DNA of 64,000 bases from Escherichia phage vB_EcoM-fFiEco06: sequence record NC_054914.1. One strand, written 5' to 3'. The stretch's first letter is position 1; every line of letters begins with the position of its first letter. Below, piece by piece: positions 29,043-33,010 of the stretch. The notes under the pieces were generated by a model, which worked only from the letters and a program-made list of their open reading frames with translations, was not told where the DNA came from and made no database searches. Made by a program: the position numbers and the translations under genes.

Positions 29043-29262
29043 ACGTTTTCCATGGTAAAGGCAGTTTAGTTTTCTTTACTACTAGTTCAACATCAGGATT
29101 CTTTTCTCTTAATTTAAGGCATTCCTCCCATGCTCTATTTTCACTAGTAAATACACAAAATTGCCCATTACTAGTACCAACTAAACCGCTATTTACAATA
29201 ACAATAGCCCAAGTTTCATGGTGCCAAGCCATTAAAAATCTCCCGAAGCGACTTGCCAGCAT
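29035..29262 (-). CDS. Hypothetical protein
   Basis: 75-aa ORF. Confidence 0.45.
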
Positions 29263-30137
29263 TCAACACCGATGCGGCGCCACATTTCAACTACTTGAGT
29301 TCGGTCATCAATAGCTAATTTCACATCAAAATGCGGTGCGATGTGTTTCCAGAAAATTTCTTCTTTAACTACATCATCTTTACGGGTATCGCCTTGTTCG
29401 CGTTGACACTGCATGACTAATGGAACACCAGCAATGTCCTCAACCCATTTACGGGTCATACGATAATATTTCGTTGGATCTTCTTCGGTTCCACTTTCAC
29501 GGCCTGAAACGACTACGATTTGATAACCCATAAGAGCATACATCTTGGATAGTTCAACGACCATTGGATTAATAATATCGGTATCGCATTTTTCAAGGTC
29601 ATAAGGACCACGACCATTCATTTTTGCTAACGTGCCATCAACATCAAAAATAACTGCTTTTGGTTTACCAGGAGTCCCTTTATATACCGGAAGACCGAGA
29701 TACTCTCGCATGCTTTTATACATTGAACGTAAAACATCAATTGGTACTGCTTTAGTTCCGCGTTTTGAGTTGCGTTTAACCAATTCAGTCCAAGGAACAT
29801 CAAACACTTTATGTTCAATTTGATGCCCAAGCTCTTTGGCAAACTCTTCCCAAACCTTACGTCGTTCAGGATTCAGATTAGTATCTGAAACAATTACACC
29901 CTTCGTTGCGTCTTGGCAGAGAATCATGTTAGCAACATCATGCTGCATGTAAGTTACGATACCTTCTTTATTTTTGGTATACTTGTACTCATCGCGTTCT
30001 TCATGACCCATGATGGATTGACGATAATCATCACGATTAATATTATAAAACCCTGGATTTTTAGCAATAAATTCGCGAGCCCAAGTACTCTTACCAGAAC
30101 CAGGACAGCCAATAGTCAAAATAATCTTTTTCATCAT
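29232..30137 (-). CDS. pseT: Polynucleotide 5'-kinase/3'-phosphatase (Pnk)
   Basis: 301 aa; P-loop GCPGSGKST and HAD-type DVDGTL phosphatase motif. Confidence 0.92.
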
Positions 30138-30454
30138 TTAATTCCTAAGAAAACTTCAAGAATACGAATATTGTGCTCACACCGTCCTTTGTACAATTCA
30201 GCTGTTGATTGATTCGCTGATTTACTCTGAACATTGGATGAAATAAATTTTATCATGTGATTTTTAAGCTGATACATATCAAGCCCACGAGCTTTCGCTT
30301 CTTTTCGCAGGGCTTTACCAGCATCATCTAAAGCTTTAGCAGGGTCTTCATCATTTAATACTATTCCACGATCCAAATCCATGTATACTGCACCATGACA
30401 TGCATCAATGTAACGGTCTGAGCATTCAATATAACGTTCTAGCAGAGTTTTCAT
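30134..30454 (-). CDS. Hypothetical protein
   Basis: 106-aa ORF. Confidence 0.5.
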
Positions 30455-30681
30455 TTATTTTTCTCAACCAATGATTGAATATAATCATGCAGGTCTTTAG
30501 ATGCTTTGCCCCACTTATTTTGGTATTCATTTTTAAGATTAGCACGTGATTGAGCTAATAAAACATCATTAGTTGGAGGTAAAGATTCTAATCGCTGAAT
30601 CTGGCGTCCATAAATCATTGCAGCCATCTCGGATTCATAAATCAATCCTTTGAGATGTTCAAATTGATGCCATGAAATCAT
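30451..30681 (-). CDS. Hypothetical protein
   Basis: 76-aa ORF. Confidence 0.5.
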   Translation of the reverse strand: MISWHQFEHLKGLIYESEMAAMIYGRQIQRLESLPPTNDVLLAQSRANLKNEYQNKWGKASKDLHDYIQSLVEKNK

Positions 30682-30977
30682 TTACATTTATCCTCTTTTA
30701 ACTCTTGACGATAATAACATATCATAGTTTTCTGGTCGTGTACATATCGTTTTACATCATTAAGCCAAATACGAAATTCCTGAGAATCTTCAAATGGCAT
30801 ACCGACCCAAGCTTTACCATCAATAACTTTAACTTGCCAAGATAATTTAGCTTCGTCATATGACTTTATTTGTACAGGCCAATTAGGATGAACTGTTTCT
30901 TTCTTTACTTCTAGAGGCTTTGTCGAACAACCAACTAGAAGACCAATAGATAATATTACTGCTGATAGTTTAATCAT
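30678..30977 (-). CDS. Outer-membrane spanin-like lipoprotein (o-spanin candidate)
   Basis: Signal peptide with lipobox LVGC; about 99 aa; overlaps the preceding i-spanin-like gene. Confidence 0.65.
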   Translation of the reverse strand: MIKLSAVILSIGLLVGCSTKPLEVKKETVHPNWPVQIKSYDEAKLSWQVKVIDGKAWVGMPFEDSQEFRIWLNDVKRYVHDQKTMICYYRQELKEDKCK

Positions 30978-31327
30978 TTAGAAAGGTCCTGGATGTCTTC
31001 TGCGAACTTGTTGAAGGAGTTGTTGATTTGTTTTTCAACCAATCCTGGCTTACGAGCCACCACATCCGCCTTCTTTGCATCTTTGCGCAGTTTTTCATTT
31101 TCACGCTCAATAGCAGCAATCGCCTCACGATTTTTATTATTCATCGCATCAATATAATTATACTGAATTCGCAAATTATTTAATGCTAAGGCGTTTTCAT
31201 TGGCCGTTTTTGTAATTTCTACAACAGACGTTTCTAATCTTTCAATTTTATTTTTTAAAATTAAAGAAGTTCCGCCTAATGCAATTACAATTAATAGCAA
31301 ACCTGCTGTCGTATTACTTAATTGCAT
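30974..31327 (-). CDS. Inner-membrane spanin-like protein (i-spanin candidate)
   Basis: N-terminal transmembrane helix followed by a coiled-coil-like region; 117 aa. Confidence 0.65.
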   Translation of the reverse strand: MQLSNTTAGLLLIVIALGGTSLILKNKIERLETSVVEITKTANENALALNNLRIQYNYIDAMNNKNREAIAAIERENEKLRKDAKKADVVARKPGLVEKQINNSFNKFAEDIQDLSK

Positions 31328-31824
31328 AAAGTTTTAATAACCTCTATAATATCGTCTTGAGAAAGACCGTTAATTAAAATATGATGTTCAGCCGGAGATT
31401 TAGAAATTTTAAAGCACGCCGCAACATCTTCTGCCATATCCGATGCGCTACGATTTGGATTACTAATTCCAAGACGATGTTTTCCCGTTAAAGGATTAAC
31501 GATGATATAGCATTTACAGTTGTTAATATGAACATTAGGTTGAGTCTGATTAATGAACACATCGCAATCATATTTCGCAAGCTGATTTTCTAAAAAGACT
31601 TTCATCTCCTCAACCGCATCAGGAAGCATATCACGGGCTTGCTCAAGACGACGATTTCGATATTCTTTAATGGTCGTTTTCCGCTTGACTTGCTTAGCTA
31701 AATCTTTCTTAAGATCGGTGATATATCCAACTCGACGATTTCCTTTAAATACAGAAATCCCATCTGTAGTATCACCGTATGCTTCAACGACCATTTCAGT
31801 AGTAATAAGCTGCAAATCCATCAT
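31318..31824 (-). CDS. alc: Alc, host transcription terminator for cytosine-containing DNA
   Basis: 168 aa; position between the spanin pair and rnlA as in T4. Confidence 0.8.
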   Translation of the reverse strand: MMDLQLITTEMVVEAYGDTTDGISVFKGNRRVGYITDLKKDLAKQVKRKTTIKEYRNRRLEQARDMLPDAVEEMKVFLENQLAKYDCDVFINQTQPNVHINNCKCYIIVNPLTGKHRLGISNPNRSASDMAEDVAACFKISKSPAEHHILINGLSQDDIIEVIKTLCN

Positions 31825-31829
31825 AAAGT

Positions 31830-31882
31830 CCTCATGTTATGTCAGTAAGACTACTATAACACAACACGAGGGACTTGTAAAC
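31830..31882 (-). promoter_or_regulatory. Early promoter/stem-loop cassette, copy B (identical to 16016..16068)
   Basis: 53-bp perfect copy; supplies -35, -10 and SD for alc. Confidence 0.6.
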
Positions 31883-31885
31883 AGC

Positions 31886-33010
31886 TTAGTATCCTTCTGG
31901 GATAAATTTTTTATAATTTTTCAAAAAATTCTGTTCGATTTCGCACATGACCTTTTCTTGACTATCGTACCCCTGATATAGGCTCATAATGATACCGAAC
32001 AGGTGATCCATTCCAGCACCTTTAGCAACGCCTTGCGCTTCCATCGCATAAGTCTTTCTATCTTTACCGCAATGCTTATTGTGACAGTCAAGAACTAAAA
32101 ACAGAGCTCGGTCTAAGTACTTCAGATAAGTCGTCTCAAATGCTTCAATTTTTCTATATGAATATTCATCGTCAGCGTACATTGCTTTAAGATCATCTGA
32201 TGCACCATCAATAATAGTCTTAAACAATTTTTCTGGATTATCTAATGAACTTTTTGTACTATGAAGAGACACGTACCAATCAGACTTAATTTTAAAATGA
32301 GAACCATCTTTCATCACGGCAACATAGCCTTCGATGTTTTCTGCATTTTTAGCTTCTTCTACCCATTTAGGACTATCGATTTCGTATCGTTCAACTAGAT
32401 ATGGACGAAGAATAGCATCTTTATAAATATCATCATATGAAATGTATTCGCCTGTTTCATTTTCACGAATATTCAATAAGATGATTTTCATCTCTTGATA
32501 AGCAAGAACGATTCTATTCGTCGGAGCAACGAATTCGAAGTTAGCAGTAAATCCATCTTCGGCTAATTCTTTAAGTCTGTCGCGCAACTGGTGATGATTA
32601 ATATTCATCAAAATTCCATTAGCCATTAAAGCCTGTTCGGATTTGATTGAACCCTTTGATTTGAACAGAATTTCATCACCGTCTAAATAAGTTGATACCA
32701 AAGACCCATCTTCTTTTGTTAGAATGTAATCAACATCATTTAAATCGATATTCATCGTGAATGGATTTTCATTCAAGTTAAAAAACTTTTCCATGGGACG
32801 AGAGGCAATTCTTACCGGTTTTTCTCCATCCATTTCAAACATAATTCCACGACATTCCAGTGCATCTGGAAGTAACCAATCAGAATAAGATGCATAATTA
32901 TATGAGAAAATTCTATAAGTTCTTCCAGATGCACTTACATCATCCGAGTAAAAAAACTTACGCTGTGAATCCTTACATAGTTCCATTAAATTGTTAAAAA
33001 GTTCTTGCAT
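31886..33010 (-). CDS. rnlA: RNA ligase 1 (Rnl1)
   Basis: 374 aa from MQELF…; the upstream ATG in the track gives a 12-residue extension that I reject. Confidence 0.9.

Follow-up and report, generated by a model that had tools for sequence, protein, structure and literature searches.

The window analysed here, a 64,000-nucleotide stretch of Escherichia phage vB_EcoM-fFiEco06 (NC_054914.1), derives from a Tequatrovirus and is 100% identical, over both stretches considered, to Escherichia phage vB_EcoM-fHoEco02 (MG781191.1). Three genes that T4 relatives deploy around the host PrrC anticodon nuclease, pseT, rnlA and stp, are present and intact in the window, all on the minus strand and all annotated already in MG781191.1.

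The first of these, pseT (29232..30137, minus strand), encodes a polynucleotide 5'-kinase/3'-phosphatase (Pnkp) of 301 amino acids, as identified from phmmer, Pfam and the pseT annotation of MG781191.1. The protein aligns over its full length with T4 Pnkp (PDB 1LTQ; phmmer E=1e-191, 92.7% identity) and has the same two-domain architecture, i.e., an N-terminal P-loop kinase (Pfam AAA_33, residues 6-148) and a C-terminal HAD (DxDGT) phosphatase (HAD_PNKP, residues 159-301). All catalytic residues checked are kept in the alignment to T4 (K15, S16, D35, R38, R126, D165, D167, R176, R213, D254, D277 and D278), the list of essential positions reportedly going back to mutational studies by Wang and Shuman. 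The two proteins differ at 23 positions, one of them a deleted residue (G74), and 20 of these differences cluster in kinase-domain residues 43-107. Given its identity to the characterized T4 enzyme, the window Pnkp would be expected to heal 2',3'-cyclic phosphate and 5'-OH tRNA ends.

RNA ligase 1 (Rnl1) is encoded by rnlA (gene 63; 31886..33010, minus strand), assigned by phmmer, Pfam and comparison to T4, and is 374 amino acids long when counted from the ATG, the mechanical open reading frame extending back to a GTG at 33046. It matches T4 Rnl1 (gp63, PDB 2C5U; phmmer E=7e-254) and the Pfam families RNA_lig_T4_1 (PF09511) and T4_Rnl1_C (PF20819), and its nucleotidyltransferase domain, which carries the motif I lysine (KEDG, K99), is accompanied by the Rnl1-specific C-terminal domain. 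Length, adenylylation lysine and C-terminal domain are thus those of the T4 protein, from which it departs only by four conservative substitutions (R141Q, V181I, T200I and I217V). These four changes stand against 46 nucleotide differences (98.9% amino-acid vs. 95.9% nucleotide identity), which indicates purifying selection. Residues R54, K75, F77, K99, D101, G102, K119, E159, E227, G228, K240 and K242 are all kept, a set said to come from work by Wang, Ho and Shuman in 2003. An earlier note on this DNA had described pseT and rnlA as intact, and this holds: both are full-length and retain every catalytic residue checked. At 98.9% identity to T4 Rnl1, the window enzyme would likewise be predicted to seal broken tRNA-Lys anticodon loops.

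Between the two lie five genes (30134..31824, minus strand; MG781191.1 annotation compared to T4), namely a 106-amino-acid ORF absent from T4, pseT.1, the spanin genes pseT.2 and pseT.3, and alc (Pfam ALC, E=3e-90), none of which is part of the tRNA repair function.

The third gene, a 28-codon stp, is located at 60104..60190 (minus strand), close to ndd as the earlier note had reported, and was identified from PHROG 6763, comparison to T4 and T6, and the stp annotation of MG781191.1. Its surroundings are those of T-even phages: stp lies directly downstream of ndd (60190..60648, minus strand; Pfam Phage_T4_Ndd, E=1e-94) and upstream of ac (59935..60093, minus strand; MG781191.1 annotation), and its ATG overlaps the TAA stop of ndd in a TAATG junction identical to that of T4, an arrangement expected for translational coupling. 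The GAGGAG ribosome-binding site of ac, in turn, begins within the stp stop codon (context TCTAAAAATAGTTGAGGAGAATATTATG). An 87-nucleotide ORF falls below the usual length cut-off of gene callers, and stp is left unannotated in many records, so that it might be asked whether the ORF arose by chance or is a remnant that is no longer translated; we regard this as extremely improbable. The peptide matches PHROG 6763 over the whole profile (E=4e-19, positions 1-26 of 26). Taking as Stp any product of ~25-31 codons with the core MS[NS][FW]HNEH[VI]MQ[FW]xRxx[LIVF]K, the 28 residues encoded here include every invariant column. A stp-type ORF was found by tblastn in 807 phage records, a conservation whose absence would have told against the reading of the earlier note, and codons 1-18 differ from those of Kagunavirus K1ind2 by eight synonymous and no non-synonymous changes. 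The conserved position and the overlap with ndd likewise argue for a real gene, as does T4 genetics, which defined stp as a functional peptide (review PMC3014915). A chance origin was rejected on the profile match together with the synonymous-only differences of the core.

Compared to T4 Stp (NP_049878.1, 26 amino acids), the window peptide is identical at residues 1-18 and diverges in its tail, which is two residues longer and differs from the T4 tail KTKGVFGRQ; the T4 C-terminus given in the earlier note, and the difference it pointed out, agree with NC_000866. Both glycines of the tail (G21 and G24) are kept with two hydrophobic residues between them (GILG in the window vs. GVFG in T4), but two basic residues are lost (K20 and R25) and the tail is more hydrophobic. 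A frameshift as the origin of this difference was rejected, the two tails aligning in frame with G21 and G24 retained. Rather than being confined to this phage, the variant tail represents the T6/T2-type allele, which carries the stp annotation in T6, in T2 and in MG781191.1, and the same or near-identical tails occur in T6, T2, Paracelsus and others. The Stp of T6 (AXN58297.1, MH550421.1; 28 amino acids, 27/28 identical) and that of T2 (BBC14880.1, LC348380.1) share the ndd-stp-ac locus, the 18 N-terminal residues and the NFGILG tail with the window peptide, and both have F25 where the window has S25 (TTT to TCT). They end in ...KNFGILGFKNS and ...KNFGILGFKK, respectively, the terminal KK of T2 following a 1-nucleotide insertion in an A run that is limited to the comparison of T2 with T6. 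By tblastn, the exact window peptide was found in 17 phage records, with 12 more in the 95-99% identity band, vs. 423 records for the T4 allele, making the T6/T2-type tail a minority variant, here one residue away from T6. In Tequatrovirus LF73P3, codons N19 and F20 of this tail differ only synonymously and residue 22 shows the conservative replacement I22V, for which reason the tail is read as protein.

The T4-type stp tail also encodes a hairpin (GGCGTCTTCGGACGCC in T4), which is absent from the window allele. The two tail types might accordingly differ mainly by an RNA or DNA element, a GGCGUC-UUCG-GACGCC hairpin that would be a candidate mRNA stabilizer on the stp strand or terminator-like on the opposite one, with the T6-type allele being simply the version that lacks it. 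The 3' end of T4 stp folds at -12.3 kcal/mol (z=-2.1), whereas the folds of the stp ends in the window, T6 and T2 are no more stable than those of shuffled sequence. Read along the opposite strand, the T4 stem followed by TTTAGTTTTA scores as terminator-like, with no such site in the window stp. The stem is also kept, with a TTTG loop, in Dhakavirus JS10 and Gaprivervirus VR26, and a "terminator" is annotated under the match in some T4-type records. However, Kagunavirus K1ind2 encodes KGVFGK by other codons (GGGGTGTTTGGAAAA) and without a hairpin, so that GVFG is conserved at the peptide level too, and no U run follows the hairpin on the stp strand. We thus hold this reading, for the element itself as for the T6-type allele as its element-free version, to be a tentative one and rather unlikely.

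In a comparison of 15 alleles drawn from four phage groups, the Stp residues that never vary (M1, S2, H5, N6, E7, H8, M10, Q11, R14 and K18) coincide with the cluster of suppressor mutations at residues 4-14 (Penner et al. 1995, via PMC3014915). The same work, as relayed there, placed Stp function in the N-proximal 18 residues and has had the tail polymorphism among T4 relatives on record since 1995. In the review (PMC3014915), loss of the 8 C-terminal codons is described as causing just a moderate drop in both activities, the residues important for the two activities as mostly coinciding, and EcoprrI/EcoR124I inhibition with activation of latent PrrC as known for the T4 allele only. The suggestion that the divergent tail could alter the interaction of Stp with the restriction complex therefore finds little support, residues 1-18 being those of T4 and the C-terminal deletion mild. 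Most likely, the T6-type Stp would be functionally equivalent to that of T4, or nearly so. The tail may still influence activity quantitatively or in its specificity, and a change in affinity is possible from the loss of K20 and R25 and the added hydrophobicity. A functional test of the T6-type Stp was not found in the searchable literature, where Penner et al. 1995 was itself reachable via review only.

A rival reading would have the T6-type tail retune Stp as an arms-race adaptation, binding other type IC/PrrC complexes or activating PrrC more weakly while keeping anti-restriction. In its favour, variation in this nearly invariant peptide is confined to the tail, which exists as two discrete types within one genus (the 423 T4-identical records vs. 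the 17 of the window allele), and these types differ in charge and hydrophobicity. Yet the C-terminal codons can be removed with moderate loss and both activities mostly share their residues (PMC3014915), the GxxG spacing is kept, and siphoviral homologues combine this N-terminal core with tails that are wholly unlike it in sequence to those of either type, all of which makes retuning improbable to us. We would give equally little credence to the corollary that the tail is adaptive by shifting the complexes engaged, or by uncoupling anti-restriction from PrrC triggering, with the Tequatrovirus tail types marking different host-defence targets.

Presence, intactness, conservation and allele identity of the gene set are direct observations, and the link of pseT, rnlA and stp to the PrrC conflict, as drawn in the earlier note, is supported by the T4 literature (PMC3014915). 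The description there of a complete tRNA repair set including Stp is right as to the three intact genes but not as to Stp, which is no repair component: in T4, Stp blocks EcoprrI, a type IC restriction enzyme, and thereby unleashes PrrC, the damage then being mended by Pnkp and Rnl1 as the repair pair (PMC3014915). We are thus highly confident that this is an ordinary T-even module directed against a host EcoprrI/PrrC locus, in a Tequatrovirus with a T6/T2-type stp allele, and we infer every biochemical step from the T4 literature. Stp would be made early in infection, probably by translational coupling to ndd, and its N-proximal 18 residues would attach to the type IC restriction complex and so keep DNA from being restricted, the divergent tail sitting in the truncation-tolerant part of the peptide. 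In prr+ hosts, this block would release the PrrC anticodon nuclease, which would cut tRNA-Lys, and the cut tRNA would then be repaired by Pnkp and Rnl1. A phage tRNA-Lys could offer another way around PrrC, but a tRNA scan of the window found no tRNA genes. Neither enzyme serves tRNA repair only, as Pnkp also processes RegB-cut mRNA (PMC3014915) and gp63, per T4 annotation, promotes tail-fibre attachment, so that their intactness is no proof of ongoing selection by PrrC.

What these genes are, what they do and how the Stp tail varies belongs to textbook T-even biology and is already known, and the gene set is of little consequence as it stands, since a GenBank record of 100% identity has all three genes annotated. 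Beyond T-even phages, for which tblastn and a scan of IMG/VR with a degenerate DNA pattern were used, the Stp core recurs in siphoviruses, in short ORFs that mostly lack annotation; Stp-like peptides of this kind are those of IsaakIselin, K1ind2 and Akira. No relevant paper on Stp in phages other than T-even ones turned up in literature searches. This shared core suggests that Stp may be a widely shared anti-restriction peptide rather than a T-even speciality. According to a 2025 review, the mechanism by which Stp inhibits type IC enzymes is still not understood, and the natural allele series, with its invariant core and freely variable tail, offers a guide for peptide-binding experiments.

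The ORF listing of the window confirmed the three genes which the earlier note had read as a tRNA repair set, all on the minus strand: pseT (29232..30137, 301 aa), rnlA (31886..33010, 374 aa from the T4-matching ATG, with the mechanical ORF reaching back to a GTG at 33046) and a 28-codon stp ORF (60104..60190). The pseT product Pnkp aligned over its full length with T4 Pnkp (PDB 1LTQ; E=1e-191, 92.7% identity) and has the same residues as T4 at the kinase (K15, S16, D35, R38, R126) and phosphatase (D165, D167, R176, R213, D254, D277, D278) positions checked, a list which reportedly stems from mutagenesis in the Shuman laboratory. 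Of the 23 differences from T4, 20 fall within 65 residues of the kinase domain (43-107), a pattern in this alignment that is suggestive of mosaicism or of fast local evolution, and the phosphatase domain is almost invariant. Rnl1 (gp63, the rnlA product) carries four substitutions relative to T4 Rnl1 (2C5U; E=7e-254), all conservative, with K99 and eleven further checked residues unchanged, and the identity of rnlA to T4 is 95.9% in nucleotides vs. 98.9% in amino acids, which indicates purifying selection. Given these full-length matches, the retained residues and the expected Pfam architecture of both proteins, pseT and rnlA are intact, as had been proposed. More generally, all the defining sequence-level features tested for Stp, Pnkp and Rnl1 were found.

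Escherichia phage vB_EcoM-fHoEco02 (Tequatrovirus, MG781191.1) was 100% identical to the window over both tested stretches, and ~500 further T-even records matched at 90-99% identity, covering most of each of the two query stretches. Between pseT and stp, the window holds 3 nt more than MG781191.1 (between 33010 and 59800; offsets 103067 vs. 103064). Two minus-strand ORFs are not found in T4: one of 106 aa (30134..30454) between pseT and pseT.1, which abut in T4, its stop overlapping the pseT start (ATGA) and its product matching phrog_2364 (unknown function, E=5e-58) with no Pfam match, and one of 175 aa (27975..28502) between cd.2 and cd.3, matching phrog_3710 (unknown function, E=2e-54) and, faintly, a goF mRNA-metabolism modulator PHROG (E=0.005). 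Also on this strand, two overlapping ORFs (60709..60825 and 60822..60968, 38 and 48 aa) take the place of the undivided 71-aa ndd.1 of T4, a split remarked on in the MG781191.1 annotation, and nrdB (33501..34679) is one uninterrupted ORF of 392 aa, whereas T4 nrdB harbors a group I intron with a defective I-TevIII gene. A tRNA scan detected no tRNA genes in the 64,000-nt window.

The stp ORF lies between ndd and ac: the first base of its ATG is also the last of the TAA that ends ndd (TAATG), and ac starts ten bases past the stp stop, within which the GAGGAG ribosome-binding site of ac begins. Its product matched PHROG 6763 (E=4e-19), and an alignment of 15 alleles from Tequatrovirus, Dhakavirus, Gaprivervirus, Kagunavirus, Drexlerviridae and Akiravirus revealed ten invariant residues (M1, S2, H5, N6, E7, H8, M10, Q11, R14 and K18), with every position past K18 variable. 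Across codons 1-18, the window and Kagunavirus K1ind2 differ by eight synonymous and no non-synonymous codons, which speaks directly for selection acting on the peptide. The pattern fits the passages of PMC3014915 citing Penner et al. (1995), in which residues 1-18 are near-absolutely conserved among T4 and eight relatives and polymorphic beyond, suppressors cluster at residues 4-14, a C-terminal 8-codon deletion only moderately lowers both activities, and the interaction surface is probably the N-proximal 18 residues.

The T4 Stp sequence given in the earlier note exactly matched the peptide read from NC_000866, and the C-terminus does differ as claimed: T4 Stp has 26 aa, identical to the 28-aa window peptide through K18 and different afterwards. 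The consequence proposed for this difference, a possible change in the interaction with the host restriction complex, finds no support in present knowledge. The window-type tail is present in the annotated Stp of classical T6 (28 aa, ...KNFGILGFKNS) and T2 (27 aa, ...KNFGILGFKK), so that the window stp is, as judged from its tail, a T6-type allele with F25S. This allele is in the minority but known, with 17 identical tblastn records and 12 in the 95-99% identity band (vs. 423 and 79 for the T4 peptide); one of the identical records is BASEL phage Paracelsus, whose annotation calls it a "type IC restriction inhibitor."

Both tail types have glycines 21 and 24, separated by two hydrophobic residues (GILG vs. 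GVFG). In Tequatrovirus LF73P3, the N19 and F20 codons of the T6-type tail are changed synonymously and residue 22 conservatively (I22V), so the tail is translated as protein, though under loose constraint. The stop of the LF73P3 stp is also lost (TGA to CGA; L029:101-280, the LF73P3 locus), and its frame continues for 59 codons through the ac start region.

A cause at the RNA level could also explain the two tail types, as a minor and unproven possibility. The T4-type tail is coded by GGCGTCTTCGGACGCC, a hairpin of six base pairs closed by a UUCG loop (GGCGTC-TTCG-GACGCC; L003:2506-2530, the T4 stp region); the 66-nt segment at the T4 stp 3' end has a folding energy of -12.3 kcal/mol (z=-2.1), Dhakavirus JS10 and Gaprivervirus VR26 retain the stem, and on the opposite strand the hairpin is followed by the T-rich run TTTAGTTTTA and scored terminator-like. 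By contrast, the stp 3' ends of the window (60104..60135), T6 and T2 lack the hairpin and fold no better than shuffles, and the same scoring gave no terminator-like site in the window stp. Against an RNA-level cause, K1ind2 encodes KGVFGK without the hairpin, and conservation of the peptide motif is therefore independent of it.

Beyond T-even phages, Stp-family ORFs of 25-31 codons, with an ATG and a ribosome-binding site, occur in Drexlerviridae (IsaakIselin, N5822, Sazh), Kagunavirus K1ind2, Akiravirus and 43-45 kb metagenomic viral contigs from IMG/VR (L020:1501-1581 in IsaakIselin, L021:1501-1596, L022:1501-1581, L023:2501-2578, L024:486-566, and IMG/VR loci L013-L016). Their N-terminal core is that of T4 Stp, their tails are different, and most are unannotated in their own records; all four peptides scanned (window, IsaakIselin, K1ind2, Akira) matched PHROG 6763 (E 3e-13 to 2e-19). 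In all three Drexlerviridae examined, a gene annotated "polynucleotide kinase" lies 0.5-1.5 kb downstream (L020:2058-2594, L021:2087-2623, L022 from 2996), and the 178-aa product in IsaakIselin, the only one of the three scanned, comprises only the Pnkp HAD 3'-phosphatase domain (PF25109, E=4e-21), without the kinase domain. The literature searched contained no mention of these ORFs or of the Drexlerviridae neighbor gene.

By analogy with T4, Stp would bind the EcoprrI type IC complex and block restriction, which in prr+ hosts would unmask PrrC and lead to tRNA-Lys cleavage 5' of the wobble base, the ends then being healed by Pnkp and sealed by Rnl1. The "repair set" label hence suits Pnkp and Rnl1, but not Stp, which on this T4-based mechanism is an anti-restriction peptide and PrrC trigger rather than a repair component. 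Since both enzymes have other roles, Pnkp in processing RegB-cut mRNA (as described in PMC3014915) and Rnl1 in promoting tail-fibre attachment (T4 annotation), their conservation alone does not demonstrate PrrC pressure. The earlier finding is accurate, and with pseT, rnlA and stp already named in MG781191.1, the module represents long-known, annotated T-even biology.
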